Source of the DNA: Bacteroidota bacterium | Lineage (GTDB): Bacteria; Bacteroidota; Ignavibacteria; Kapaibacteriales; Kapaibacteriaceae | DNA: 64,000 bases | Direction: 5' to 3' | NCBI GenBank assembly: GCA_018266735.1 | Contig: JAFDZT010000002.1 | Location: forward strand, 172,439 to 236,438 | Part shown: positions 24,928 through 61,435 of the stretch, in pieces | Numbering within the stretch: the first letter of the stretch is position 1 | Layout of the letters: the number at the start of each line of letters is the position of its first letter | Translations under genes and position numbers: made by a program | Notes under the pieces: model-generated | Database searches by the model: none | What the model was told of the DNA's origin: nothing | The model's input: only the letters and a program-made list of their open reading frames with translations

Positions 24928-25121
24928 CAGACCCTGCACCAAAGCGCAACCACCGACCGGTGCTCACCCTGCTGACGATCCTGTTCTGCGCAGCCTTCTT
25001 CATTGCCATCATGCGTGGCGGTATGTGCGAGCGGTACGATCGGAAGATGGACCGGATGAATGCCATGCGCCAGTACATCGATTCCATGCGAACCGAGGAA
25101 CAGCTCAAGAAGCTCAAGTAA
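24924..25121 (+). CDS. Candidate small membrane protein of 65 aa (MTDPAPKRNHRPVLTLLTILFCAAFFIAIMRGG..., one transmembrane helix plus a basic amphipathic tail), translationally coupled to prmA (ATGA).
   Basis: An in-frame ATG overlaps the prmA stop. Hydrophobic helix. This is the terminal part of track ORF 24519..25121. Confidence 0.4.
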   Translation: MTDPAPKRNHRPVLTLLTILFCAAFFIAIMRGGMCERYDRKMDRMNAMRQYIDSMRTEEQLKKLK

Positions 25122-25134
25122 GGAGAATGGCAGT

Positions 25135-25539
25135 TCAGTTGTTCCAGAACTGCTGACCGAAGTAGAACAGATCCCGTCCGTTCCGTCCGCGATGCAGGTA
25201 GCTCACCTCGTGCTGAGCCCGCTTCTCGAGAAACTCGCGTGCATCGTCCTCGTGCACTTCTGCATAGCGGGCAACATCGCTCACGCGCACCTTCCCCCCT
25301 TGCACGTCGATCAAATGCGACGTCACCATTTCCAATCTACGGCGTTCGCGTCGTTCCTCCGACATGCTCGAAAGAAGGAGCCAGACCCCGCAGGCAAGGT
25401 GAAGGGAGGCAAGGGCAAAGCAGATCACGATCTCGGACGACGTGGACGTTGCTCGCATCCAACCGATCACACCGAACGTCAGGTAGACCAGACTGAAGAT
25501 CGCCACCATGGCGCCAAGAAAGTATTTGATCCGATACAT
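25135..25539 (-). CDS. Hypothetical two-TM membrane protein of 134 aa with a C-terminal soluble domain.
   Basis: Two clear hydrophobic helices followed by a charged domain. It overlaps only the non-coding N-terminal extension of the mfd track ORF. Confidence 0.45.
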   Translation of the reverse strand: MYRIKYFLGAMVAIFSLVYLTFGVIGWMRATSTSSEIVICFALASLHLACGVWLLLSSMSEERRERRRLEMVTSHLIDVQGGKVRVSDVARYAEVHEDDAREFLEKRAQHEVSYLHRGRNGRDLFYFGQQFWNN

Positions 25540-25614
25540 CGCTACAAACCTACGGGAAATTCAAACGTCGTATTTTGCGTGTCCGTGCACGCAGTACGTC
25601 CAGACTATCTCAAG

Positions 25615-28600
25615 GTGCTCGAACCGCTTCAACGATCCGCCGACGTCCTTCGAACGGCGGATCTGCTCACGCGCGCCCAGTCGCCGGTACGTGTAAAGAC
25701 ACTTGTCGGCTCATCTCGTTCCATCTTCACGGGAACGATCTGGCAAATGGGCGCCGTGCCCTTCGTGGTGATCGTGGCCGACGATGCGGCATGTGATCTG
25801 TGGACGCATGACCTGCGCGCCCTCGTGGGCGAAGATCGTATCAGTGTGTTGCGCATGCCTCCCAAGCAAAGCGTCCTCTCGGCCGGCGGCATCGTCCACC
25901 ATGGTCATGTTGACGCCCTCGCACGATTGAACGAAGCCAGCGATCGCATCCTGATCGCCACGGCACAGACGCTGACACTTTCATTGCCCTCGAAAATGTC
26001 GTTGCATGATGCGACCATCGTGCTTCGCAAAGGAGATGAGCGTCCGTTCGAGGAGTTCGTGACGTCGCTCTTGTTGAATGGCTTCGAGCGGACCGACTAC
26101 GTGTCACGTCCGGGCGATCTTGCTGTGCGCGGTGGCATCATCGACGTCTTCCCCAACGGGTGGGACAATCCCATCCGCATCGAGTTCTGGGGCAACACCA
26201 TCGAATCGCTTCGCGAGTTCGAGCCCATGTCGCAACGCTCGATGCGCGAACATCCCGAGCTCACGTTCCTTGCGCGCGTCTATCATAACGATGATGATTC
26301 CGTGACGTCGTCGATCATGGAACACCTGCCAACCGACGCCGTCCTCGTCTTCGATGAACCCGATGCCGTCCTTGCCGCCCTTCATGCCATCACGGAAGAG
26401 GACGATCCTGCGTCTCGGTTCACAGCTTGGAAGCAATTGCATGTGAATGCGTTGGGCGATGAGGATGTGTCCGTGCTGACAGCACCACAACCAACGTTCT
26501 CCGCCTCGATCGAAGCCGCGATCCGATTCTGTTCGCAGCAATATGAGAAGGGCATGACGGTGGCCCTTGGTGCCGACGGTGCCACGCATACCAAGCGTAT
26601 TCGCGACCTCTTCGAGAACATGGCCGAGCAAACGGAAGAGGAGGACGAAGCACGAGCGCTCTCGTATCATCGCGCTGTCGACAGAATGTGGTGGATCAGT
26701 CATTCACTCAGCGAGGGATTCCTCTGGGCATCGGAACGCCTGGTGGTGTTGGCCGAGCATCAGATCTTCAACCGTCAACGCGCACAAGCACGTCAACGTC
26801 GGTCCGAGCGTGGCATCACGATCCGAGAACTGCAACAACTGCATCGTGGTGACCATGTGGTGCACGCCGATAAAGGCGTTGGACAATTCGATGGTCTGCA
26901 CACCATCTCCATCGGCGGTTCGCAACAAGAATGCGTCAAGCTTCTGTTTGCCGGCGGCGATGCCTTGTACGTGCACATGAACTATGTGCATAAGCTGAGC
27001 AAGTTCGCGGCCGAAGAAGGTTCAGAGCCAAAGTTGAGCAAGCTCGGCTCCGCCGAATGGGAACGCAAGAAGGCAAAGGCCAAGAAGCATCTCAAGGACA
27101 TTGCACGCGACCTTATCAAGCTCTACGCGAAGCGTAAATCACAACCCGGTTTTGCCTTCCCTGCCGACACGGTGTGGCAGAAAGAGTTCGAGGCTTCCTT
27201 CCAGTACGAGGACACGCCCGATCAGGCGCGGTCGACGGCCGAAGTGAAGACCGACATGGAACAGGCGACGCCCATGGATCGACTGGTCTGCGGTGATGTG
27301 GGCTTTGGGAAAACGGAGATCGCCGTACGAGCGGCGTTCAAGGCCGCCCAAGCCGGGAAGCAAGTTGCCGTGCTCGTGCCGACCACGATCCTTGCACAAC
27401 AGCACTTCGTGACCTTCCATGATCGACTGCAGCGCTATCCCGTTCGCATCGAGGTGCTGTCGCGATTCCGCTCCAAGGCCGAACAAAAGGTGATCATCGA
27501 GAAACTTGCCACGGGCGACGTCGACATTGTGATCGGCACGCACAGGCTGCTCAGCAAGGACGTGCAGTTCAAGCAACTCGGACTCCTTGTGATCGACGAA
27601 GAACAACGTTTCGGTGTGGCGGCAAAGGAGAAGCTCCGCGCCATCCGAGCAAGTATCGACACGCTCACGCTCACGGCAACGCCGATCCCGCGAACGCTCA
27701 ACTTCTCGCTCATGGGCGCTCGAGATTTGAGTGTGATCGAGACGCCACCACGCAACCGACTGCCCATTCGTACCGAGATCCTGCAGTGGGACGACGATGT
27801 GCTGCGAGAGGCGCTCATGCTCGAACTGGAACGCGGCGGCCAGGCCTTTGTCGTGACCGATCGCATTGGAGACATGGAGAAGCTCTTGATGCGCATCAAG
27901 ATGCTCGTGCCATCGCTTCGTATTGCCATCGCCCACGGACAGATGGAGACCGAACAGCTCGAGAACGTGATGGAGGGATTCCTCGAGCGCACGTTCGATG
28001 TGCTGATCGCCACGAAGATCATCGAGTCGGGCCTCGACATCCCGAACGCCAACACGATGATCGTCATCAATGCCGACAACTTCGGTCTGGCCGAGCTCTA
28101 TCAGCTGCGAGGTCGCGTCGGTCGCTCCAACATTCAAGCCTACTGCTATCTCGTCATCCCGCCACCACACACGCTCACACGTGTTGCCCTCCGTCGCCTG
28201 CAGGCCCTCGAAGAGTTCACCGACCTCGGAAGTGGCTTCCAGCTTGCCATGCGCGATCTCGAGATCCGCGGCGCTGGGAACCTTTTGGGTGGCGAGCAGA
28301 GCGGCTTCATCGTGGAGATGGGATTCGAATTGTATCAGAAGATCCTCGAAGAGGCTGTCACAGAACTCCGTCATGAAGAGTTCGCACAACTCTTCGCCGG
28401 GACCAAGCATGCCCGTCCGTCGTTCATCAACGAAGATCTCGCCATCGAACTCGACAGCGACGCACTGCTTCCAAAGTCCTACATCCCCACCGATACGGAT
28501 CGGTATGAGTTCTATCGCAAGCTCTACAATGCACACACGGAAGACGAGATCACAGCGGTGTTCGCAGAGATGCGCGATCGCTTTGGCGAGCTCCCTCCGG

Positions 28601-28914
28601 AGGCCGACGCACTCTTGTATGCTGTACGTCTGCGGATCGCGGCCCTTCCCTTGGGTCTCGTGCGCGTGAATCTCAAGGACACGAAGCTGCTCATGGAATT
28701 CCCGTCCGAGACGGACAAGGTCTACTACGAACAAGCCTTCCCGGCCCTTCTGCCCGTGATCACTTCGATGAAGAACGCTCGCTTCATTCAAAAGGAGAAA
28801 CGCCTCTTCGTCGAAGTACAGCTGGCTCGTGCATCGGAGGCACTGACCGTCTTGCAAGAGTTCGTGCGTGTGCTGAACGACCATACGATCGCCGCAGAGG
28901 AGAGTGCATCATGA
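25615..28914 (+). CDS. mfd: Transcription-repair coupling factor (Mfd), about 1099 aa. Probable GTG start (VLEPLQRSADVLRTADLL...).
   Basis: UvrB-homology N-terminus (LVGSSRSIFTGTIW, FPNGWDNPIRIEFWGNTIESLREFEP). Superfamily-2 helicase motifs GDVGFGKTEIAVRAAF, DEEQRFGV, TATPIPRT. TRG motif region and C-terminal domain. There is no in-frame ATG after the convergent gene at 25539. Confidence 0.9.
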   Translation: MLEPLQRSADVLRTADLLTRAQSPVRVKTLVGSSRSIFTGTIWQMGAVPFVVIVADDAACDLWTHDLRALVGEDRISVLRMPPKQSVLSAGGIVHHGHVDALARLNEASDRILIATAQTLTLSLPSKMSLHDATIVLRKGDERPFEEFVTSLLLNGFERTDYVSRPGDLAVRGGIIDVFPNGWDNPIRIEFWGNTIESLREFEPMSQRSMREHPELTFLARVYHNDDDSVTSSIMEHLPTDAVLVFDEPDAVLAALHAITEEDDPASRFTAWKQLHVNALGDEDVSVLTAPQPTFSASIEAAIRFCSQQYEKGMTVALGADGATHTKRIRDLFENMAEQTEEEDEARALSYHRAVDRMWWISHSLSEGFLWASERLVVLAEHQIFNRQRAQARQRRSERGITIRELQQLHRGDHVVHADKGVGQFDGLHTISIGGSQQECVKLLFAGGDALYVHMNYVHKLSKFAAEEGSEPKLSKLGSAEWERKKAKAKKHLKDIARDLIKLYAKRKSQPGFAFPADTVWQKEFEASFQYEDTPDQARSTAEVKTDMEQATPMDRLVCGDVGFGKTEIAVRAAFKAAQAGKQVAVLVPTTILAQQHFVTFHDRLQRYPVRIEVLSRFRSKAEQKVIIEKLATGDVDIVIGTHRLLSKDVQFKQLGLLVIDEEQRFGVAAKEKLRAIRASIDTLTLTATPIPRTLNFSLMGARDLSVIETPPRNRLPIRTEILQWDDDVLREALMLELERGGQAFVVTDRIGDMEKLLMRIKMLVPSLRIAIAHGQMETEQLENVMEGFLERTFDVLIATKIIESGLDIPNANTMIVINADNFGLAELYQLRGRVGRSNIQAYCYLVIPPPHTLTRVALRRLQALEEFTDLGSGFQLAMRDLEIRGAGNLLGGEQSGFIVEMGFELYQKILEEAVTELRHEEFAQLFAGTKHARPSFINEDLAIELDSDALLPKSYIPTDTDRYEFYRKLYNAHTEDEITAVFAEMRDRFGELPPEADALLYAVRLRIAALPLGLVRVNLKDTKLLMEFPSETDKVYYEQAFPALLPVITSMKNARFIQKEKRLFVEVQLARASEALTVLQEFVRVLNDHTIAAEESAS

Positions 28915-29582: not shown

Positions 29583-30875
29583 ATGATCGAACGATACACG
29601 CGACCCGAAATGGGAGCCATCTGGAGCGACGAGAACCGATTTGGTATTTGGCTGGAGATCGAGATCCTCGCCTGTGAAGCACAGGCGAACCTTGGTGTCA
29701 TCCCCGTCGAAGCTGTGCGCGAGATCCGCGAGAAGGCACGCTTCGATGTGAAACGCATTCTCGAGATCGAGGAAGTGACGAAGCACGATGTGATCGCTTT
29801 CACGACGAATGTTGCCGAATACGTCGGGCCCGCATCACGCTTCATCCATATGGGCATGACGTCGAGCGACGTGCTCGACACCTGCTTAGCCGTCCAACTC
29901 AAGCAGGCGGGCGAGCTGCTCATGAAGAATCTCATTGCCCTGCGCGACGTCCTCGCAAAAAGAGCTCAAGAGTTCAAGTACACCATTTGCATCGGTCGTA
30001 CGCATGGCATTCATGCAGAGCCTGTGACGTTCGGACTGAAGCTTGCGCTGTGGTATGAAGAGTGCAAGCGGAACATCGATCGACTGCAACATGCCATCGA
30101 CGGGATCGCCTTCGGCATGATCTCTGGTGCTGTGGGAACGTTCGAACATCTTTCTCCCGATGTGGAAGAGTATGTGTGCGAGAAGCTCGGTCTGAAGCCT
30201 GCACCGGTGAGCACACAAGTGATGCAGCGCGATCGACATGCGGAGTATCTGACCACGTTGGCCGTCATTGGCTCGTCACTCGAGAAGATCGCCATCGAGA
30301 TCCGTCACCTGCAGCGGACAGAAGTTCGCGAAGCGGAAGAGTACTTCTCGCCCGGACAGAAGGGATCCTCTGCGATGCCGCACAAACGCAATCCTATTAT
30401 CAGCGAGCGCCTTTGCGGTCTTGCGCGCTTGTTGCGCGGTAATGCCATGACGGCCATTGAGAACAATGCCCTGTGGCATGAGCGCGATATCTCGCATTCC
30501 AGTGTTGAGCGTGTGATCTGTCCGGACTCCACCATCACCTTGCATTACATGCTCTACTTGGCCGTTGGTATGATGGAGAAGCTCCTCGTCTATCCAGAGA
30601 ACATGAAGAAGAACTTCGAGATCACGCATGGTCTGCCATTCTCGCAAACGGTGATGCTCGAACTCGTACGTAAGGGAATGACGCGCGAAGATGCCTATGC
30701 ACTCGTGCAACGGAATGCCATGAAGACGTGGGAGACGAAGACACCGCTCCGCACGATGCTTGCGACCGATGCCGACGTGACCGCACGACTTTCGGACGAT
30801 GAACTTGATGCCTTGTTCGATGGAAGTAGAATGGGCAAGAATGTCGACGTCATTTTCAAACGCTGCGGACTATGA
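29583..30875 (+). CDS. purB: Adenylosuccinate lyase.
   Basis: [20 protein letters not shown]..., the fumarate-lyase signature [11 protein letters not shown], and 430 aa. Confidence 0.95.
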
Positions 30876-32431
30876 ACACCAGAACAACGCTTCTCGGTCT
30901 CGTGATCATCGCCGCACTGTTCTCCTATGCGGCAACCACGCAAGGCCTACCATCACGGAGCGACAATGTGCAACGTGGTGGTTTGGACAGCGCGGAGTTA
31001 TCGCCAAAGCAACTGGCGACGCAGTACTGTCAGACGTGTCATGTTCTTCCCGATCCATCGGTTCTCGACAAGTCCACCTGGATCCAGAACGTCTTCCCTA
31101 CGATGCGCACGGCAATGGGGTTGGACACGCTCACCGCCGAGGCCCTTGCAGCGCTCGATCCAAGTGTGCGACACATCTACAACCGTCCACCTCTCATGTC
31201 GGAGGATACGTGGTTCAAGATCGCCAACTACTACATCGAGAACGCACCTGCCACACTCCCGAATGCTCCTCGCCCTCCCATCGGTCCTGAAACGCCACAA
31301 TTCGAGGCAAAGCCGGCACCCTGGCGAGCTCTGACCCCCCTCTTCACACACGTACGACTCGACCCGGCCCTTCAAGCGATCATCCTTGGTGATGCGAGTC
31401 AGAACCGCCTTGTGGTATGCGATGCGAACGGTGAACGAAAGGCGCTGCTGCCGATGCAAGGACCACCTTCCAGTGTGGTGATCGACGGTGGACAATGGTA
31501 TGCCACCGACATGGCCAATCTCCTTCCGCATGATTCGGCGGCCGGAGGGTTGTATCGATTTACGTGGAACAAGGACTCGACAGCGAAGACGGAGCGACTG
31601 CTTGACTCCTTGCGCCGTCCCGTGCATTTGAACCAGTACGACCTGAACGGAGATGGAAAGAAGGATCTTCTCATCAGCGAATACGGGAATCTTCTTGGTC
31701 GGCTCGGTTACTATGAACTCCTTCCAAAAGGAAAGCACAAGTACACGCTCTTGCTCGAGCAGCCCGGTACGATCCGTACGGTGGTCGCAGACCTGAATAA
31801 GGACGGTCGACCGGACGTGATCGCCCTCACGGCGCAGGCGCGTGAGGGACTCGTTGGCTTCATCAACAAGGGAAAGGGCCGGTTCGAGAAACGTGAGTTG
31901 ATCACGGTGCATCCGGCGTTCGGTTCATCGTTCTTCAACATTCTCGACTATAACAACGACGGACATATGGACATCGTTCTCACGAACGGTGACAATGGCG
32001 ATTACTCAAGCCCACCCTACAAGCCCTATCACGGCGTGCACATCTTCCTTGGTGATGGCAACATGCACTTCCAGGAATCGGTGTTCCTGCCGGTGAACGG
32101 ATGCTATGGTGCTGTGGTGAACGACTTCGATCTCGATGGTGATCTTGACGTTGTGTCGTTGGCCTACTTTGCCAACTTCTCGTTAACACCGGAAGAAGCA
32201 TTGATGTATTGGGAGCATCGTGCAGACGGAACCTTCATGCCCAGTAGAATGGCGAAGTTCAATGCCGGACGGTGGCTCGTCTTCGATGCAGCGGACTTCG
32301 ATCACGATGGCGACATGGATGTGATCGTGGCCAACACGGCCTACGGTCCGGGCAATGTACCGGGCGCCATGCAAGACGCCTGGGTGATCGCCGGTGTGCC
32401 CTTCGTCTACTATCGTAACACGGCACGATGA
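30872..32431 (+). CDS. Secreted FG-GAP/VCBS-repeat beta-propeller protein of 519 aa with an N-terminal c-type-cytochrome-like CxxCH motif (CQTCH).
   Basis: Signal peptide [30 protein letters not shown] at about residue 52 with downstream Met candidates (PTMRTAM). Repeated D-x-N/D-x-D-G-x-x-D calcium-binding FG-GAP loops ([45 protein letters not shown]). ATGA overlap with purB. Confidence 0.65.
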
Positions 32432-34609
32432 TCATGGGAGGTTGAACCATGGAACAACCATGTCGTGATCGTCGATCGTGAGCACCACCCATCCATAGAA
32501 CGTCGAGGCATCGCAGAAGAGATCGGAGATGTGTAGTTCACACGGCGTGTTCGTCATGATGCACTGCGGATACTGTCGGCCTCCGACATCAAATGCACGT
32601 ACCGTCACTTGTCGGGACGACGTTCCATCCAGAACAAGACTTCTCCCCCGTCGTTGCATCAGTGTTCCGGCGGACGGGTCGAACAAGCGTGGCCCGGCCT
32701 CCATGCAAACATCGAGTGAGCAGATCCCGAACCTGCCAAGGCGAGGGATCACACGAGCATCGTCGACGGTGAACGAGTCGATCGTGATCATGCTTCGTTC
32801 GTCATCACCCAAGGTGACCATCATTGGAATGCGAAGCACCGTGTCAGTCAATCCTGCGTACGTCGGCATCTGCATCCACATCCATCGCCATGCGCGCGAT
32901 AGCTGCGAACCGGTCGATGCGTCGCGCTGCGGGACCAAGACCGACGCTCGGGTCATCAATCGAAATCGAATGGTCGCCGGATAGCGGATGCTGTCGCGTG
33001 TGGACACATGGATGACCACATCGACGCTGTCGCCCGGACGTCCACGCACATCGTCGATGCGAAACCCCACATCACTGGTGGGCTCTGCACACGATGTGGT
33101 ATCCACTCGCATCGTATCCCGAAACACGCAACCGTCGTTGGTCATGATGGCACAGATCACCTGATTGCGCTTCTTCGTTGGCGTCACCTCGATCTCGGGT
33201 GCATTCAACGGTTGGAGTGCATCGTTCACCCACCAGTCATACTGTGCACCGCCCATTGCACGCACAAGGGCTTTTGACCTTCCGCAAACGGTTGTGTCGG
33301 GGGTGACGATGCGCGGGACGACAAAGGTCGACGTCGACATTGGCAGATCCGACATTTGCAACCGGACCCCATCCGTTCCAGAGCTCGCACCATGACGTAC
33401 ATCGCTCGAACACGTGACATCTCGAGCCATTCCGGCAGATCCGCCAAGGACCGATGCGGCAACGGGGATCGACGTGATCACACGTCCACCTCCCCCTCCA
33501 CCACCCGGAGCATAACAACCGTTCGTTCCGTTGTTCTCGCCGCCATCTCCACCATCGACAACACATTGCGCTGTGCCCACGATCGTTGATGCGAAGAAAG
33601 CGATCGAACCGCCGGCTCCACCGCCACCGGCTCCATCCTCCAGTGCGTTGCGGGCCGTTGCGCCGCGAGCGTCAAGTACGACACCGCTGTCGACGATCAC
33701 AACCGAGGCGATGACGACGATGATGCCACCACCGGCCGCACCTGCCGATCCTTTGAAGTCGTTCTGATGTCCTCCCCCTCCGCCACCTCCAAGGAAGAGT
33801 CGATGTGGGTCGTTCGTTGCCAAAGCATACCCACCACGTCCACGCACGTCGGTGGGGAACAAGGTCGACGGCTGTGTCCCGCCCATGCCGCCTTCTCCAC
33901 CGTTCCCGCCTCCTCCACCTCCTCCGTTCCGTGCATTGCCTCCACCACCGCCGCTCGACCATGGTGAGCGCCCAGCTCCAAGTGCTCGCACTGCCGCCGC
34001 ACTTCCCTCTCCCTTGCGTCCACCGAGACCTGCGTCATCGCGAGTTGCCCAACTCGTCTCGGCCGTGTCCAGCGTGTTGAGACTCACGGCACCGCCGCGA
34101 TATCCCATCCCGCCTGCGTCCAATGATGCGTGGAGACGCAGGGTGTCGGTACATTCGATGGCGATCACGCCACCGGAGGTTCCATTCCATGCTTGTGCCG
34201 TCACAAGGCCGGTCACGTCCGCCGACGTTGATCGCGCCACCTTGATCAGTTGCACGCCGTCTGTTGTGGAGTATCGATGGATCGGGCGATGCGTCAATCG
34301 GACCGTGCCGCCCATTACCGTATCGACGGTACACAACTCCCAAAGACCTGCGTTGGCAACATCGTTGATCGCTCCCGTGCGATCTGTGCGTGACGTGTCG
34401 ACATGCACCCCTTTCATTTGCAACAGCATGATACGATCGCCCTTCTTCAACCAAGCCACGGGCGTGATGCGCACAGTGTTGCGGCAGGTATCGAACGAGC
34501 TCACGGCCGCATACTGATTGATGCGACCACGGAGGTCGGTGGCCTGCGCATCGGCAATGCCGGCAAGCATGATGAAGCCGAGCAAAAGGATGGTCGATGT
34601 TGTTCTCAT
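32432..34609 (-). CDS. Secreted glycine-rich repeat protein of about 725 aa (operon gene 4). Start MRTTSTILLLGFIMLAGIADAQA.
   Basis: Signal peptide. Long G-runs (GGGGGNARNGGGGGGGNGGEGG, GGGGGGGHQNDFKGSAGAAGGG, GGGGGGGR) interspersed with beta-strand-like segments. The C-terminal 60 aa were considered as a T9SS CTD but are not convincing. Confidence 0.5.
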   Translation of the reverse strand: MRTTSTILLLGFIMLAGIADAQATDLRGRINQYAAVSSFDTCRNTVRITPVAWLKKGDRIMLLQMKGVHVDTSRTDRTGAINDVANAGLWELCTVDTVMGGTVRLTHRPIHRYSTTDGVQLIKVARSTSADVTGLVTAQAWNGTSGGVIAIECTDTLRLHASLDAGGMGYRGGAVSLNTLDTAETSWATRDDAGLGGRKGEGSAAAVRALGAGRSPWSSGGGGGNARNGGGGGGGNGGEGGMGGTQPSTLFPTDVRGRGGYALATNDPHRLFLGGGGGGGHQNDFKGSAGAAGGGIIVVIASVVIVDSGVVLDARGATARNALEDGAGGGGAGGSIAFFASTIVGTAQCVVDGGDGGENNGTNGCYAPGGGGGGGRVITSIPVAASVLGGSAGMARDVTCSSDVRHGASSGTDGVRLQMSDLPMSTSTFVVPRIVTPDTTVCGRSKALVRAMGGAQYDWWVNDALQPLNAPEIEVTPTKKRNQVICAIMTNDGCVFRDTMRVDTTSCAEPTSDVGFRIDDVRGRPGDSVDVVIHVSTRDSIRYPATIRFRLMTRASVLVPQRDASTGSQLSRAWRWMWMQMPTYAGLTDTVLRIPMMVTLGDDERSMITIDSFTVDDARVIPRLGRFGICSLDVCMEAGPRLFDPSAGTLMQRRGRSLVLDGTSSRQVTVRAFDVGGRQYPQCIMTNTPCELHISDLFCDASTFYGWVVLTIDDHDMVVPWFNLP

Positions 34610-36009
34610 AGTTGCTGTGCCACAATGATCCATCGTTGCCACGATGCATCGTACCAAAGAAGAAAAGTTCCATCATTCACAGTGGTCACATCGTCACCGG
34701 TCATCGACGTGATCCGATTGATGGCCTGTGATCCGATACCCTCGTGCACGAGCGTGAGGGGAGCACCGCGATTCACGATGAGGAGCACCTTTCCGTCTTC
34801 CCCGCCACTGAATCCCGTGATCACCGACCCCGGTGCGGTGCTCCATACTCTGATCACGCTGTAGGTACCGATATCCACGTTGTGATGCATACCGGCAACG
34901 AGATCGGGAAGAGTGCTCCCACGCATCGAGAAATTGCGTGTCGACATTCCTCCCGACGTGCGTGCATGATGCATGTACGTCGTGGACGTATTGGAAACTC
35001 CAAGAGCATTCATCATGGTGGTCGACAGTCCGGGCGGACGTTCATCGTCGCTGCATCCAAGGACCACCGAAGCACCTCCACTCACGACCAGCCCGAAGCT
35101 GTTGGGAAGCGATGGTGCGACGAGATGCGCAGCGATCGCTCCGTAGTTGCCGGTAGCCGACGTTGTCACTTCACCATGCAAGGCTTCGACCAATCCCGCT
35201 TGCGCTGTGGCCGTCGCCTCCGCGATGGCCTTCACGGCCATGCTCTGTGTTTGCGATCCGCCGTTGCCACCACGCGTCACGGTGCCAAGCACTCCAACGA
35301 TATCGTCGGAAGCGGCGGCGCTGTTCGACGCAGCATGCCCTCGCACACCAACACGGGCTCGAAGCGGCGGGTCGGCATAGGCCGATGATTGCGAGCTACC
35401 GACCAGAGCGGCGCCCAACATGTTGGTCCGAAAGAATCCACCAACATTGTCGCTTCCCGACGTGGTCACATCGATCCCGCGGGACGGCGGAACGGTCCCG
35501 CCAATATCAAGCGCTGTAGCGGTTCCTGCTGACAGTGCGTTGTATCGGATCCCCGTTCCGCCCGTGATGTCGATCCCGGTTCCTAGCGTCGGACGCTGAG
35601 CGTCGGGAGGACCGCCCAAGCGTAGGCCGGTACCGGAGCCGTTCGACGCCGACTGGATGACAATTCCCGCGTTCTCTGTGCCACTCATTCCAATGTTCTT
35701 CACCACGATGCCATTGGATGCCTGTGTGCCGATCATGTCGACCACCAGTCCGTTGCCATTCCCCGCATCGATCGAGGCAATGCGCATGCGCTCGTTGAGT
35801 GCAGCTCCTACGCCACTCCCAACCCCAAGTCGGAGTGGCAACTGCACATCACCGGCCGTACTCAACTGCATGGCCACTACTTGCGGATCTGCACCGACAA
35901 GGAACTGCATCGGTTGCCGCGACCGCAGTGCGCGGGCTCCGAACGACTGTCCACTTGTCTGCACCACGCAACACACGATGGCGATATGTGCGACACACCA
36001 CTTCATCAC
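34606..36009 (-). CDS. Secreted Gly/Thr/Ala-rich repeat protein of 467 aa (operon gene 3), fibre or adhesin-like.
   Basis: Signal peptide MKWCVAHIAIVCCVVQTSGQS. Repeated G-x-G-I motifs (NGLVVDMIGT, NGIVVKNIGMSG, NAGIVIQSASNGSGTG, GTGIDITGGTGIRY, ALDIGGT). C-terminal W-containing tail (…LLWYDASWQRWIIV). Confidence 0.5.
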   Translation of the reverse strand: MMKWCVAHIAIVCCVVQTSGQSFGARALRSRQPMQFLVGADPQVVAMQLSTAGDVQLPLRLGVGSGVGAALNERMRIASIDAGNGNGLVVDMIGTQASNGIVVKNIGMSGTENAGIVIQSASNGSGTGLRLGGPPDAQRPTLGTGIDITGGTGIRYNALSAGTATALDIGGTVPPSRGIDVTTSGSDNVGGFFRTNMLGAALVGSSQSSAYADPPLRARVGVRGHAASNSAAASDDIVGVLGTVTRGGNGGSQTQSMAVKAIAEATATAQAGLVEALHGEVTTSATGNYGAIAAHLVAPSLPNSFGLVVSGGASVVLGCSDDERPPGLSTTMMNALGVSNTSTTYMHHARTSGGMSTRNFSMRGSTLPDLVAGMHHNVDIGTYSVIRVWSTAPGSVITGFSGGEDGKVLLIVNRGAPLTLVHEGIGSQAINRITSMTGDDVTTVNDGTFLLWYDASWQRWIIVAQQL

Positions 36010-39286: not shown

Positions 39287-40735
39287 ATGCATCGATTCCG
39301 TACTGCTGTTCTTGCCTGTACCCTCGTCCTTTCCACCCTGTCACTTCAGGCGCAGATCAATGAAGATTCGCTCCGCGCACAGGTGAACCGGATCGTCACG
39401 CCCTACGTCAACAAGCACAACGCCGGTGTTGTGGTAGGAGTGGTGCACGAAGAGAACGTTGGTGTGCCGAAGCGATCCTACTACACGTACGGAAAGACGC
39501 GGCATGCGGCGGATGCACCACGTCCGGACACACTGTCGCTCTACCATATCGGATCCGTGACAAAGACCTTTACGGCCCTTGTCCTTGCGAAGCTGATCCA
39601 GCCCGGTCAGTCCCTGCACCTCGAAGACACGTTGAATGGCCTCGTGCCCAACGGTGTACAAGCACATGGATCTTCCGTTGGTTCGATCTGGATCCCGATC
39701 CGACTCATCGATCTTGCCACACATACATCAAGCTTCCCCGAGAACTATCCGCAAGGTGCCCGCGATTCTCTCACCTACGAAGAGATGTATACGAAGGTGA
39801 ACAACTTCGATCTTCCGCGCGCACCAGGAACGTGTTACGAGTATTCGAACCTTGGTGTGTCCATGCTCGGTGTTGCACTCACCCACCACTTGGAGACCAA
39901 CGTCGCCACGATGCTCACGAACCAAGTGTGCGATGTGATCGGCATGCCCGACACCCGCATCGATCTGAATGAGGAACAACTCTCCCGTCGCGTGATCCCC
40001 TACGTTGGCAATGATTCCGTGAGTTTCCACAAGCCAACGTGGCCTGCGTTCTATGCGGCCGGTGGGTTGTATTCATCGATCGCCGACATGACGAAGTACC
40101 TCGAGTTCATGATGGGCTTCCGCCCGGAGATCATGCCCGGCGCGCTTGATTCCGTACGCATCATGCGTCGTCAGAACAACGATAAGTGCTTGCAACCGGC
40201 ATCGATCGACAGTGTCGGACTCGTATGGCAACAAGGCTCACTGCATGCCGCCGAAGATCCGTCGTTCCGCACCACATGGAAAGATGGTGCCGTTGTTGGT
40301 TCGGTGAGCTTCATTGCCTTTGCCTCACACCCTCAGACCGGGAAACGCACCGGCGTGGTGATCATGGCGAATGATACGGCAAGCCTTCAGCCGTTGGCGA
40401 ACGAGATCCTTCGATATCTCAATGGCTTTGCGGTGACGACATCGGTTGCAGGGAATGCCGACGCGACATCGAACGATGCACTCGCCTGTACGGCCTATCC
40501 GAATCCGATCTCGAATACGGCAACGCTCGTCGTGAATGTCGGCACTCCCAAGGTCGTTCGTCTTCGCATCTTCGATGAGCATGGCTCGCTTGTCGCAACG
40601 CTGCACGATGGTGCACTTGACGCGGGCTCGCATCGCTTCACGTGGGATGCTCGCACACATGCAAGTGGCGCGTATACGTGCACGATGGAGTCGGGTGCAG
40701 ATCGAACAACCGTCCCCCTGCGCGTGCTCCGATAA
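39287..40735 (+). CDS. Secreted serine hydrolase (class C beta-lactamase / PBP-like fold) with a C-terminal T9SS type-A sorting domain.
   Basis: Signal peptide. The S-x-x-K motif GSVTKTF, a YxN-like motif and a KTG-like motif. The C-terminal about 80 aa (CTAYPNPISNTATLVVNVGTPKVVRLRIFDEHGSLVATLHDGALDAGSHRFTWDA...YTCTMESGADRTTVPLRVLR) has the Por_Secre_tail pattern. Confidence 0.75.
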   Translation: MHRFRTAVLACTLVLSTLSLQAQINEDSLRAQVNRIVTPYVNKHNAGVVVGVVHEENVGVPKRSYYTYGKTRHAADAPRPDTLSLYHIGSVTKTFTALVLAKLIQPGQSLHLEDTLNGLVPNGVQAHGSSVGSIWIPIRLIDLATHTSSFPENYPQGARDSLTYEEMYTKVNNFDLPRAPGTCYEYSNLGVSMLGVALTHHLETNVATMLTNQVCDVIGMPDTRIDLNEEQLSRRVIPYVGNDSVSFHKPTWPAFYAAGGLYSSIADMTKYLEFMMGFRPEIMPGALDSVRIMRRQNNDKCLQPASIDSVGLVWQQGSLHAAEDPSFRTTWKDGAVVGSVSFIAFASHPQTGKRTGVVIMANDTASLQPLANEILRYLNGFAVTTSVAGNADATSNDALACTAYPNPISNTATLVVNVGTPKVVRLRIFDEHGSLVATLHDGALDAGSHRFTWDARTHASGAYTCTMESGADRTTVPLRVLR

Positions 40736-57409: not shown

Positions 57410-60400
57410 ATGACTCGAGCTTCCGTACGCAGTGTCGCCGTGGCACTTCTGATGACCGTCAGTGCCATTCTGGTATCTGCACAATCCAGCCCGACACCAT
57501 TCAACCTGAGTGGCGGGACGTATTCGTTCACACAGTGGGATGCAACGAATGCAGCAGGCACCTACCCTGCGAACATGACGTTCCATACCTACACGAAGTC
57601 CACGAGCACACCCGATGTGACCATGGCAGATGCTCCAACGGGCACGTGGAGTTGTGTGTACAACAGCACCAGTGGCCCGCGTATAGCCGGTAAAGGTGCA
57701 GCAGGGTTCAGCTTCATCACGTCCGGTGGAACGCCAACTTGTACGGGAATGTGGGTGGGTGCTGCCGTGTTGGCGCTCAATACGCAGAACCGTGCGAATG
57801 TGACCGTGAACTGGACCGCTGGTACGGTAGCGACATTGGGTCGTACCTATTCGCTGCGGTTCCAATATCGAATCGGTACAGGCGGGACGTGGACAGACGT
57901 TCTTCAGAACGGTCTCCCAACGGAGTACTTGGTCGGTGCCATCGGTACCACGCAGTCCTTCTCGACGCTGCTTCCAATTGCGGCGGAGAACCAGCCAGTG
58001 GTCGAAGTTCGCTGGGTGTACAACTACATCAGCGGTTCGGGCAGTCGTCCTGAAATGAGCTTGGACGAGATCTCTGCTACATCGACGTCTTCGATCGGCA
58101 CACCAACGAAGTTCTCCATCACGGCCATCAGCCCATCGTCGCCTTCGACGAGCTCTCCGTTCAGCGTGACCGTGCGCTCCACGGACGCTCTTGGCAATCC
58201 GATGTTCGTGGCAACGGCCACAAGCTTCACGCTTTCGCGCGTCACAGGTACCGGCACATTGAGCGGAGTGCTCACCGGTACGATCCCTGCAGGAGCAAGC
58301 TCGGTCACCCTGACGAATGTGAACTACAACGTTGCAGAAGCAGGCGTGGTGATCCGTGCTACCCGCACGGCAGGAGATGCACTGGCCTTTGGCGACAGCA
58401 ATCCCTTCACGATCCAGCAGGGTGCAAGCCAACTACGTCCAACGAACTTCCAGAACGTCGGATGGGCAAATTCACCCTTCCCGGCCTTCACGGTCGATGC
58501 CATCCGTCCTGACGGTACGATCGATGCTACCTACTCCGGACCGATCACGTTCACGAAGGTCAGCGGTCCAGGGAATGTGACACTCACCAGCAGCGTTGTT
58601 CCCTTCCAGGGCACGTCGACGTTCGACGATGTGAGCGTGGACCTTCCCGGTACGTATGTGTTCCAGGTGTCGGGACCGAACGTTGCCTCGAACACCTTGG
58701 CCACGGTCACGGTATGGGCAACACCAACGCTTACGACGACCATCGTTCCACAGTATGTCCACGGACGTGATGGTGCAGGTTCCTCTGCGAATCTTCCCAA
58801 CTTCGCTCTTGTGACCTTCTCGAATCTCCAGCCGAACACGCTGTATCGATTCAACACAGGATTGGCAACAGATCAGATCCTCACATCAACGGGCGGTGGT
58901 TTCAACATCCACTACACCAACGACGCGAACACGTACAGCTACAACACGTCGAAGTCCACGTCCACCGATGGTGCGTACTCCACGTTCACCACGGCTCCCG
59001 GTCAAACAACAAAGACATTGTGGATCAACCTGACCACGTCGACGAACGTGGCCTTCCAGGAACTGCAGACCGTTTACTGGCGCATCTCGCTCACCGACAA
59101 CATCGGTCGCTTGGTCACACGCTATCAGCTCGCGCAAACATCCACCACGTTGCAGCTCGGACCTGAGACAACGCGTGGCACGGGTATCGCCGACATTCAA
59201 AGTCAGCTCACCCCAAAGAACATCGTCTGCTTGTACGATGTTGAAACACCGACGGTCTCGACACGCCCGATCAGCACGGCCATCGTTCAAGATGATGGCA
59301 CCACCCTTACGGGCGCCTATTCGTGGTACGCTGCACTTGATGGTTCACCAACGTCGTGGGCAACCTTCATCCCCAACACATTGCCGAACGGCGTTCGCCG
59401 GATCGAAGAGCGTGATTGGAGAACGGGCGCCATCGTCTACTTCCGTACCTCCACGAATGGTGTATGGAATGGTGTGAACACAGTTGGAGCAACAGGCGGT
59501 TCAACGTCGCCGATCTACCTTCAAACCCCTCGCATCACGATCGCAACTCCTGTTCTGAACGACACGCTTTGCGGTCTGAACTCGCAGCGCATCAACTTCA
59601 CGGCACGCGGCACCAACAACGTGCTCATCGAGTTCTCGTCGAACAACGGAGTGAACTGGATCCAAGTGGCAACGGTTCCTGCAGCCAGCGGATCGTTCAA
59701 CTGGACCGTTCTCCCTATCGACTACTCCAACAACTGCCTTATCCGCATCACGGGCGTTGAGCGCACGGACATCTCGGCAACATCCGGTCGGTTCACGATC
59801 GCGACCAAGCCAGCCGTTGTACAGCAACCCGTTTCATCGAATCTCTGCCTTGGCCAGGACTATGTGCTCGTCACGCTCACCAGCGGTTCGGTACGCCGGA
59901 TGCAGTGGATGAAGGACGGTCGTGATATTTCAGGTGCGAACTCACCCATCCTTTCGATCAAGAACGCCGGTTGGGATGCATCTGGTTCCTACACCTGCCG
60001 TATCGAAACGTATGGCACGTGTGGCACGATCTTCTCTAACGAAGCAACCATCCGTGTTGCACGTCCGATCCAAGTGGTCGATCAACCACGGGTCGTCAAC
60101 GTAACGATCGGTCAGCGTGCAGAGATCGCCATCACGGTCGAGAACCCGAACGATGCCACCTTCCAATGGCGTCGCGGAACGAATCCGATCTCTGACAACG
60201 GCAACATCACCGGAACGAACAGCAGCACCCTCACGATCAATAACGTGACGGCTGCAGATGTTGCGGCTGACTACAACTGTGTTGTTGTTGGCGTCTGCGG
60301 TACGGTCACCACGAAGGACATTCGCCTGCTGACGATCGGTGTCTACGCAGACATCCCACAATCAACGGTCAACGCCTGTATCGGACAGAATGCTGTCATC

Positions 60401-61435
60401 CAAGGTCAGGTCTACAGCAATCCGGCCGGTGTCCCACTCGATGTGCAGTGGACGTTGAACGGCAGTGTGATCATGGACGGTGACAAGTACGAAGGCACCA
60501 ACACGGGCGTTCTGAAGATCAAGAACATGCTCCCTGCCGATCAAGGCACGTACATTCTGATGGCAAGCTTTGCCGGCGATGAGTCATCGATGAGCCACGA
60601 CACGGTCGTTGTCTCGCTTGCTAGCGCTCCAACGATCAGCGCACAACCTGCGGCAACAAGCGTCTGCCCAGGTACGACCCTGACGATGAATGTTTCGGCG
60701 GTTGGAGCCGGCACGATCACCTATCAGTGGTATGCGAACAACACAGCGATCGCCGGTCAAACGTCGGCCACATTGTCGATCCCAGATTTCACGGAAGCAC
60801 GCCAGGGCATCTACTATTGCGTTGTGAGCACAGCTTGCGGCACGGCACAGTCGAACCCGGCTTCGGTAACAGCAAAGGCCCGCACGGCATTCACGCAACA
60901 ACCAGCCGCTACGCTGGAAGTGAAGACGAACGAAACACTCACGCTGACGGTACTCGGCGCCGGCGAGGGAACGGTCCAGTATCAATGGTTCAAGGATGGT
61001 ACCGCTCTCAACGGTGAAGTTGCGCCGGTCTACACCAAGGCCAATGCCACGGCATCGGATGCCGGCAAGTACTGGGTACGCCTTCGCGCTGAGTGCGGAG
61101 ATCAGATCTCCGACACCTCGACGGTCACAGTGGCTCCTGTCGTGAGCAGTGTGAACGAAGATGTGATGGCCGGCGGTGCGATCGTTGAACGCGTCGTTCC
61201 AAATCCAGCCTTCTCGTCCGCTTCGTTCAATGTGAATGTGCCGGCTCCTAGCCGCGTCTCCATTGTTTTGACGAACACGGCCGGCATGGTGGTCGAAACA
61301 TTGGCAAATGGTGTGGTCCTCGAGGGTGCCGTTCACTTCGACATCGATGCTTCGACACTTGCCACCGGTACGTATTTGCTCGTGACGTCGATCGGTACAG
61401 ATCGACATGTACAGCAGCTCGTCATCATCAAGTAA
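57410..61435 (+). CDS. Giant secreted cell-surface protein of 1341 aa with multiple Ig-like (I-set-like) domains and a C-terminal T9SS type-A sorting domain.
   Basis: Signal peptide MTRASVRSVAVALLMTVSAILVSAQS. Repeated about 90-aa modules ending in Y-x-C (…GSYTCRIE, …DYNCVVVG, …GIYYCVVST, …GKYWVRLRAECGDQ). The terminal about 80 aa (NPAFSSASFNVNVPAPSRVSIVLTNTAGMVVETL...GTYLLVTSIGTDRHVQQLVIIK) fits Por_Secre_tail. Confidence 0.75.
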   Translation: MTRASVRSVAVALLMTVSAILVSAQSSPTPFNLSGGTYSFTQWDATNAAGTYPANMTFHTYTKSTSTPDVTMADAPTGTWSCVYNSTSGPRIAGKGAAGFSFITSGGTPTCTGMWVGAAVLALNTQNRANVTVNWTAGTVATLGRTYSLRFQYRIGTGGTWTDVLQNGLPTEYLVGAIGTTQSFSTLLPIAAENQPVVEVRWVYNYISGSGSRPEMSLDEISATSTSSIGTPTKFSITAISPSSPSTSSPFSVTVRSTDALGNPMFVATATSFTLSRVTGTGTLSGVLTGTIPAGASSVTLTNVNYNVAEAGVVIRATRTAGDALAFGDSNPFTIQQGASQLRPTNFQNVGWANSPFPAFTVDAIRPDGTIDATYSGPITFTKVSGPGNVTLTSSVVPFQGTSTFDDVSVDLPGTYVFQVSGPNVASNTLATVTVWATPTLTTTIVPQYVHGRDGAGSSANLPNFALVTFSNLQPNTLYRFNTGLATDQILTSTGGGFNIHYTNDANTYSYNTSKSTSTDGAYSTFTTAPGQTTKTLWINLTTSTNVAFQELQTVYWRISLTDNIGRLVTRYQLAQTSTTLQLGPETTRGTGIADIQSQLTPKNIVCLYDVETPTVSTRPISTAIVQDDGTTLTGAYSWYAALDGSPTSWATFIPNTLPNGVRRIEERDWRTGAIVYFRTSTNGVWNGVNTVGATGGSTSPIYLQTPRITIATPVLNDTLCGLNSQRINFTARGTNNVLIEFSSNNGVNWIQVATVPAASGSFNWTVLPIDYSNNCLIRITGVERTDISATSGRFTIATKPAVVQQPVSSNLCLGQDYVLVTLTSGSVRRMQWMKDGRDISGANSPILSIKNAGWDASGSYTCRIETYGTCGTIFSNEATIRVARPIQVVDQPRVVNVTIGQRAEIAITVENPNDATFQWRRGTNPISDNGNITGTNSSTLTINNVTAADVAADYNCVVVGVCGTVTTKDIRLLTIGVYADIPQSTVNACIGQNAVIQGQVYSNPAGVPLDVQWTLNGSVIMDGDKYEGTNTGVLKIKNMLPADQGTYILMASFAGDESSMSHDTVVVSLASAPTISAQPAATSVCPGTTLTMNVSAVGAGTITYQWYANNTAIAGQTSATLSIPDFTEARQGIYYCVVSTACGTAQSNPASVTAKARTAFTQQPAATLEVKTNETLTLTVLGAGEGTVQYQWFKDGTALNGEVAPVYTKANATASDAGKYWVRLRAECGDQISDTSTVTVAPVVSSVNEDVMAGGAIVERVVPNPAFSSASFNVNVPAPSRVSIVLTNTAGMVVETLANGVVLEGAVHFDIDASTLATGTYLLVTSIGTDRHVQQLVIIK

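Follow-up and report, generated by a model that had tools for sequence, protein, structure and literature searches.

An exported protein family predicted to join a divergent cytochrome c domain to an FG-GAP beta-propeller

Within a 64,000 nucleotide stretch of a Kapaibacteriaceae genome (the window: Bacteroidota bacterium assembly GCA_018266735.1, contig JAFDZT010000002.1, positions 172,439 to 236,438 of the forward strand) a gene directly downstream of purB encodes an exported protein with a single CQTCH motif ahead of an FG-GAP beta-propeller. In the public record the protein (hereafter the target) is labelled 'VCBS repeat-containing protein', its relatives carry the same label or 'hypothetical', and the 825-kb contig, from a metagenome-assembled genome, is labelled Bacteroidetes bacterium. 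We present evidence that the CQTCH motif marks a divergent domain of cytochrome c type that probably binds haem and that is joined to the propeller throughout a large family. The features of the gene are as follows.

30872..32431, + strand: complete gene for the putative cytochrome c / FG-GAP propeller protein, intact open reading frame (ORF) of 519 amino acids, public record MBS1560411.1
30872..30931, + strand: Sec-type signal peptide, residues 1 to ~20, from direct reading of the translation
30995..31246, + strand: predicted divergent class-I-like cytochrome c domain, residues ~42-125
31028..31042, + strand: CQTCH haem-c attachment motif, residues 53-57 (C53, C56, H57), invariant in alignment A1
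31103..31105, + strand: Met78, candidate distal haem ligand, 21 residues past His57
31283..32419, + strand: predicted seven-bladed FG-GAP (integrin-alpha/CRTAC1-type) beta-propeller, residues ~138-516
31640..31666, + strand: calcium-binding-type loop 1, DLNGDGKKD, residues 257-265; D257, D261 and D265 at least 95% conserved
31790..31816, + strand: calcium-binding-type loop 2, DLNKDGRPD, residues 307-315; D315 invariant
31946..31972, + strand: calcium-binding-type loop 3, DYNNDGHMD, residues 359-367, from sequence and alignment
32021..32035, + strand: K384-P-Y386-H387-G388, family-specific invariant patch in the long loop after strand 367-372
32123..32149, + strand: calcium-binding-type loop 4, DFDLDGDLD, residues 418-426; D426 invariant
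32294..32320, + strand: calcium-binding-type loop 5, DFDHDGDMD, residues 475-483; D475 invariant

The N-terminus, in which an earlier sequence-only reading of this DNA had seen a signal peptide, reads as one of Sec type, with likely cleavage near SYA/A followed by ATTQG and no lipobox Cys (read directly from the translation rather than called by SignalP), and the AlphaFold2 model places a helix at residues 3-21 followed by a low-confidence linker at 24-34. The domain behind it is laid out as an N-helix, the CxxCH, a helix carrying Trp70 and Met78, a variable insert of 20-35 residues and a last, C-terminal helix with the pattern WxxIxxYY. The sequence-only reading was right that a single CQTCH motif stands behind the signal peptide and too short in its spacing of about 25 residues, the motif lying ~32 residues from the likely cleavage site, and its 'five or more' loops of the form D-x-N/D-x-D-G-x-x-D come to exactly five canonical ones.

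From the amino acid composition of the window a CxxCH is expected by chance 0.0028 times per 519 amino acid protein and 0.11 times per whole window proteome, by which measure the motif on its own is suggestive and not proof. A homologue search of 5.8 billion proteins gave 309 matches, the best 120 being full-length relatives of ~500 amino acids with 32-94% identity, and 119 of these 120 carry one CxxCH each at the equivalent site, the lone exception being N-terminally truncated. When 267 family proteins were pooled for motif counts the CxxCH was found in 265, down to ~33% identity, with one truncated protein and one H-to-R substitution as the exceptions. All 265 proteins with the motif have a Trp at His+13 and 262 have a Met at His+21 (two have Leu and one a small deletion), and in alignment A1 residues C53, C56, H57, P62 and W70 are invariant with P60, L65, P76, M78 and G83 at least 96% conserved. 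This conservation across the family is the decisive evidence that the motif is not fortuitous. The sequence-only reading had named lack of conservation in orthologues as a reason to abandon its haem-c proposal, and the opposite is found; of the Met candidates that it saw downstream of the motif, Met78 is the probable ligand. A Cys-Cys-His triad combined with a Met at fixed spacing is the pattern predicted for a haem-c site with His/Met ligation. The two Leu-bearing proteins, both of Verrucomicrobia type (P0069 and P0118), also lack most of the variable insert, and their distal ligand may be another residue or their haem may be five-coordinate.

In order to place the N-terminal domain we used its profile (A2), which when searched against all PDB sequences matched almost exclusively cytochromes c (6cuk at E 0.016, c-550, c4, c-555 and 3cp5), and the alignment to 6cuk, a cytochrome c of Rhodothermus marinus, covers the N-helix, the CxxCH and the C-terminal helix. 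Alignment of A2 with the R. marinus cytochrome c in hhalign gave 92% probability over 80 columns with both terminal helices included, and the reversed R. marinus sequence, used as a control, gave 5% over 8 columns. Fold searches on the domain also favour cytochrome c with weak scores, and the N- and C-terminal helices are predicted to pack around the haem site as in the cytochrome c fold. Export, which attachment of haem c needs, is indicated by the signal sequence of the target and by signal peptides or lipoprotein signals in its homologues.

A number of observations weigh against a haem-binding cytochrome domain. Neither the whole protein nor residues 1-165 matched any Pfam or NCBIfam cytochrome family at E values up to 10, the Cytochrome_CBB3 and Cytochrom_C families named by the sequence-only reading as a check included, and the sole cytochrome trace in the curated models was TorC at E 0.065. 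Met78 lies inside a predicted helix (67-81), which is atypical for a class I distal Met, two relatives have Leu at its position, and the scanned ORFs of the window include no cytochrome c maturation genes. We did not take the silence of the curated models as a refutation because the profile-to-PDB, hhalign and fold searches, weaker lines but independent of one another, all point to cytochrome c, and the proposal of a cytochrome c domain ahead of the propeller thereby gains the support of the PDB-wide profile search and of hhalign. From its sequence the haem domain is class-I-like but outside the current curated models. We consider it likely that the domain binds haem, with Met78 the probable distal ligand and H387 of the propeller an alternative candidate for that position.

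A CxxCH without haem would offer a different explanation, in which the motif forms a structural disulfide, a redox-active CxxC or a metal site in a small helical cap and the likeness to cytochromes is superficial. We regard this as improbable, as the motif His is as invariant as the Cys with only one H-to-R member, the Met and Trp stand at fixed spacing, the matched elements include the class I N- and C-terminal helices and not the motif alone while the reversed control fails, and the protein is exported in the manner that haem c attachment needs.

The best profile and fold matches of the domain are class I mono-haem cytochromes c (R. marinus 3CP5/6CUK, c5/c-555 and the N-domain of DHC, 2FWT). 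The target shares with them an N-helix of the form G-x-x-L-A-x-x-Y-C-x-x-C-H, an amphipathic C-terminal helix with an aromatic residue, a conserved Pro soon after the His, a conserved Met and export. It differs from them in that its Met is only 21 residues past the His and within a predicted helix, in the variable 20-35 residue insert and in the fusion to a propeller.

The remainder of the target was matched in Pfam by FG-GAP_3 (4.7e-29, 101.2 bits against a cut-off of 26.9) and FG-GAP (9.3e-14, 51.4 bits against a cut-off of 22.1), with nothing else significant on the whole protein. It is confidently predicted to form a seven-bladed propeller, and its sequence supplies the calcium-type hairpin loops D-x-D/N-x-D-G-x-x-D of such propellers. 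The best Foldseek matches are of CRTAC1 and integrin alpha type (for example murine CRTAC1, 9ETN) with ITFG2 also close. The AlphaFold2 full-length model has a predicted local distance difference test score (pLDDT) of 93.8 and a predicted template modelling score (pTM) of 0.89, and as this confidence extends to the well-ordered linker at residues 125-137 the model argues that the haem domain is packed against the propeller in a fixed way.

Across the family R249, Q322, E325, D374, H387 and W468 are invariant in addition to the Asp residues of the calcium loops, and N375, K384, Y386 and R467 are nearly so, with K384 and Y386 at least 97% conserved beside the invariant H387 and G388. By the strand order of the model these invariant and near-invariant polar residues are placed in the 2-3 and 4-1 loops; in the integrin topology such loops form the ligand face of FG-GAP propellers. 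By analogy the conserved loops would make up the face opposite the calcium hairpins, the usual FG-GAP ligand face, and the K-x-Y-H-G patch, which is absent from the neighbouring ASPIC/UnbV paralogue, would also lie on this top face of the propeller.

From its sequence the target is a member of the FG-GAP/VCBS superfamily and, like CRTAC1/ASPIC-UnbV proteins and integrin alpha, has a seven-bladed FG-GAP propeller with calcium-type hairpin loops. Unlike CRTAC1/ASPIC-UnbV proteins it consists of a single ~380 residue propeller with its own haem domain and the family-specific K-x-Y-H-G patch, and it lies outside that family because it has no UnbV_ASPIC domain (PF07593), a domain which is present at 2.7e-23 in the neighbouring 1192 amino acid paralogue of the Segetibacter koreensis locus described below.

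The A2 profile, searched against 1.84 billion representative proteins, matched 1400 at E values of 1e-3 or below and 910 at 1e-10 or below, giving a family of ~1400 clusters at 50% identity. Members occur in Ignavibacteria/Kapabacteria, Bacteroidota and Verrucomicrobiota, in all in over 540 genomes at species level, which supplies the taxonomic distribution of the fusion that the sequence-only reading had suggested as a check. Among the best 150 N-domain matches of ~1400 the cytochrome-propeller architecture is common to nearly all and in no case did the N-domain clearly make up a protein by itself. Just one of these 150 clearly departs from the architecture, a protein of 1185 amino acids (P0139) with the cytochrome-like domain at residues 133-242 and no Pfam family. 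No description of a fusion of a cytochrome c domain with an FG-GAP propeller was found in the literature searched. The combination had been called unusual from the sequence alone and it does look so, the N-domain being matched in ~1400 clusters with a single architecture in nearly all of the best 150.

We compared 85 loci with clustered ORFs and found that bacterial ASPIC/UnbV proteins are the commonest neighbours of the family. In ~25 Bacteroidota loci the gene is part of arrays in the order SusC, SusD, an ASPIC/UnbV gene of ~1190 amino acids and the target homologue, sometimes duplicated and sometimes without the ASPIC gene, the carriers including Chitinophagaceae, Puia, Segetibacter koreensis, Persicitalea and others. 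The homologues in these ~25 loci are SusC/SusD-associated lipoproteins, most Bacteroidota members having a lipoprotein Cys ~31 residues ahead of the CxxCH; the window protein has no lipobox and no SusC/SusD nearby and does not belong to this type. Genes that often follow the arrays encode a PAP2/VCPO-like protein (in 9 loci), a protein with a CxHC thioredoxin fold (in 7) or an EamA fragment. In Verrucomicrobia the gene lies amid several ASPIC-like proteins of 1200-1370 amino acids, and CxxCH was found in none of 24 long ASPIC-like neighbouring paralogues. One cultured isolate, Segetibacter koreensis DSM 18137, has two copies of the family in a single locus (L045, 1082-19869) in the order SusC, SusD, ASPIC/UnbV, target and PAP2/VCPO-like protein followed by SusC, SusD and target, both copies with the CxxCH and the lipoprotein Cys.

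The redox-type neighbours that recur across loci are the CxHC thioredoxin-fold (7) and PAP2/VCPO-like (9) proteins together with MauG/MbnH-like di-haem proteins. The latter were considered as conserved partners and set aside as a weak lead because they occur in only ~4 independent loci, two of the loci (L005 and L032) being the same contig. On that Saprospiraceae contig (8613-12494) and in L041 the genes after the target encode PhoX and a 652 amino acid protein whose C-terminal module is MauG/MbnH-like and di-haem and whose N-terminal part is faintly EfeO-like. In some Ignavibacteria a MauG/MbnH-like di-haem enzyme of 340 amino acids with two CxxCH motifs is encoded by an insert between tsaB and purB on the other strand (L003 4527-5549, L007 7503-8525 and L012 7543-8547, all - strand), just ahead of purB and the target, which shows that c-type haem proteins are made in these lineages.

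In the window, by comparison, the gene is preceded by purB with which it overlaps.

29583..30875, + strand: purB (adenylosuccinate lyase), ORF with exact protein match MBS1560410.1 'adenylosuccinate lyase'
30872..30875, + strand: ATGA start/stop overlap of purB and the target, candidate site of translational coupling

As had been noted from the sequence alone the ATG of the target at 30872 lies across the TGA of purB in the context ctATGAac. The order prmA-mfd-tsaB-purB-target is kept in ~22 Ignavibacteria/Kapabacteria loci, the window included, and the syntenic counterparts of purB match Lyase_1 and ADSL_C. Where purB lies upstream (20 loci) there is always a start candidate for the target that overlaps the purB stop or lies within 2 nucleotides of it, with the signal peptide directly after. 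In 12 loci the junction is ATGA or GTGA at -4 and in 3 it is TAATG at -1, while 4 loci have an overlap of -19 and 1 has a gap of +2. Judged from these sequences the purB-target coupling is a conserved trait of the clade even at ~40% protein identity, and the target is probably translationally coupled to purB. A scan for promoters and terminators around the gene returned no more sites than shuffled sequence, the promoter type of the organism probably not being covered by the scan, and tRNA and Rfam scans of the window gave no matches.

That the target overlaps or abuts purB in every one of the 20 clade loci, down to ~40% protein identity, might be taken to mean that it acts in purine or nucleotide metabolism or its regulation. 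We reject this as very unlikely, the purB linkage being confined to one clade. The whole prmA-mfd-tsaB-purB block is syntenic in this clade, and the linkage with purB may thus be no more than an ancestral gene order. The linkage is lineage-specific because the Bacteroidota members sit instead after SusC/SusD and the large ASPIC/UnbV gene; Bacteroidota and Verrucomicrobia members, found in SusC/SusD/ASPIC loci, are never beside purB. As the linkage is lost outside the clade and the products belong to different compartments, the target being exported and PurB cytoplasmic, the overlap is no argument for a purine function. The co-expression with purB that had been suggested earlier is thus supported by the retained overlap, and a shared function is not.

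Taken with the haem-domain and propeller evidence, we somewhat favour a reading of the target as an exported mono-haem c-type cytochrome docked on a calcium-stabilised FG-GAP propeller and acting as a redox-active binding protein or enzyme of the cell envelope. After Sec export a cytochrome c maturation system would link haem covalently to Cys53 and Cys56, with His57, to judge from the invariant motif, as the proximal ligand and Met78 as the probable distal ligand, giving a six-coordinate His/Met electron-transfer haem. The haem domain would be seated rigidly on the propeller, as predicted at pTM 0.89, and by FG-GAP topology R249, Q322, E325, D374, K384, Y386, H387, R467 and W468 would line the usual ligand-binding face. 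Single electrons could then pass between the haem and a ligand or partner held on this conserved face, the partner system in Bacteroidota and Verrucomicrobia possibly being the SusC/SusD transporter and/or the large ASPIC/UnbV FG-GAP proteins. In the Kapabacteria/Ignavibacteria lineage the target is the last gene of a conserved, operon-like mfd-tsaB-purB block, and we take the purB overlap as an arrangement for expression. Two points tell against this proposal in addition to those given for the haem domain, namely that gene context in the window's own lineage indicates no substrate and that the invariant basic and aromatic residues could merely dock the haem domain or its propionates and not form a substrate site.

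In a rival reading the protein is a haem-bearing scaffold, the propeller docking it without chemistry to a partner such as an ASPIC/UnbV protein, SusCD or a different complex of the envelope, the haem relaying electrons or sensing redox state or a gas and the invariant residues docking the haem domain. FG-GAP propellers have so far mainly been known as binding modules, and the structurally closest ones (CRTAC1, integrin alpha and ITFG2) are such modules; large ASPIC/UnbV paralogues are conserved neighbours, residues of the kinds that are invariant here (Arg, Lys, Tyr, His and Trp) bind haem propionates, and His/Met-type ligation suggests electron transfer over catalysis at the haem. However, the Kapabacteria/Ignavibacteria members, the window included, have no ASPIC or SusCD neighbour, and a search of the window found no second FG-GAP or ASPIC gene. 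In addition more polar residues are conserved across the three phyla than would be expected of a surface that only docks, and an FG-GAP-like propeller can be catalytic, aldos-2-ulose dehydratase being an example. We therefore hold the scaffold to be a possible but less probable explanation than the redox-active binding protein or enzyme. A bolder extension of the latter, which we offer only tentatively, is that the family forms a new class of haem-c-dependent envelope enzymes in which a catalytic or substrate-holding FG-GAP face is wired to covalent haem, and which in Bacteroidota would carry out a redox step in SusC/SusD nutrient acquisition together with ASPIC/UnbV and peroxide- or thiol-related neighbours.

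Periplasmic enzymes that combine a cytochrome with a propeller are known, among them cytochrome cd1 nitrite reductase (NirS/NirN), the quinohaemoprotein alcohol dehydrogenases and the hydrazine synthase alpha subunit, and their design is similar to that of the target. Their propellers are 8-bladed with d1 haem or pyrroloquinoline quinone (PQQ), or 6-bladed, and have no sequence homology to that of the target, in which no PQQ or cytochrome d1 Pfam family was detected and no second cofactor is indicated. We place the target outside the cd1 and quinohaemoprotein families because its propeller is of FG-GAP type and second-cofactor motifs were undetected. The fusion is a widespread variant of the known cytochrome-plus-propeller design and not a categorically new system. 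An FG-GAP gene of the CRTAC1 family has been described between homologues of hydrazine synthase subunits (PMC12758564), a further hint that propellers of this kind occur alongside c-haem enzymes. The X183-type c-cytochrome domains of carbohydrate-active proteins (Teredinibacter turnerae TERTU_2913, 8Q1V) have very weak structural similarity to the N-domain and other partner domains. A role as electron donor to oxidative enzymes would be an analogy only.

With the conserved, putative haem-c domain recognised, what was an anonymous repeat protein can be tested as a redox protein, and a divergent cytochrome c family that is missed by current profile libraries matters for the counting of cytochromes in genomes. 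In soil and freshwater Bacteroidota a lipoprotein encoded right after SusC/SusD alongside the enigmatic ASPIC/UnbV proteins may point to redox chemistry in nutrient-uptake loci. The interest would be greater if the propeller face proved catalytic or a redox step in SusC/SusD-type uptake were confirmed, and cultured carriers exist in Segetibacter koreensis DSM 18137 and Persicitalea jodogahamensis KCTC 12866.

Downstream of the target the Ignavibacteria/Kapabacteria loci have a block of four convergent genes whose products are secreted and match no Pfam family. In the window these are of 741, 467, 350 and 271 amino acids and the block, which is conserved with the target across Ignavibacteria and Kapabacteria, extends to 37768 on the - strand. 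The first of them (32432-34657, - strand) contains Gly-rich runs such as GGGGGNARNGGGGGGGNGG, has no Pfam hit and resembles the N-terminal domain of AgmC (adventurous gliding) in NCBIfam at E 3e-58 with 197.7 bits, below the 275-bit cut-off. At 32429-32434 the target (+) and this gene (-) meet stop codon to stop codon in the palindrome TGATCA with zero intergenic bases, leaving no room for a terminator between them, and an abutment of 0-1 nucleotides stop to stop was also found in two other loci (L001 and L003).

Elsewhere in the window the longest ORF of mfd (TRCF; 25060-28914, + strand) is 1284 amino acids as compared with ~1107 in most relatives and 1337-1343 in L001, and its Ser/Arg-rich N-terminal extension may be untranslated with the true start lying downstream. 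A protein of 1341 amino acids (57410-61435, + strand) has several immunoglobulin domains of eukaryote type (Ig_3 at 2.7e-36 and I-set at 7e-28). A beta-lactamase-family protein with an FlgD-Ig-like domain (39287-40735, + strand) matches Por_Secre_tail at 22.4 bits, below the Pfam cut-off of 27 bits, and this weak match hints at a type IX secretion system (T9SS) in the organism.

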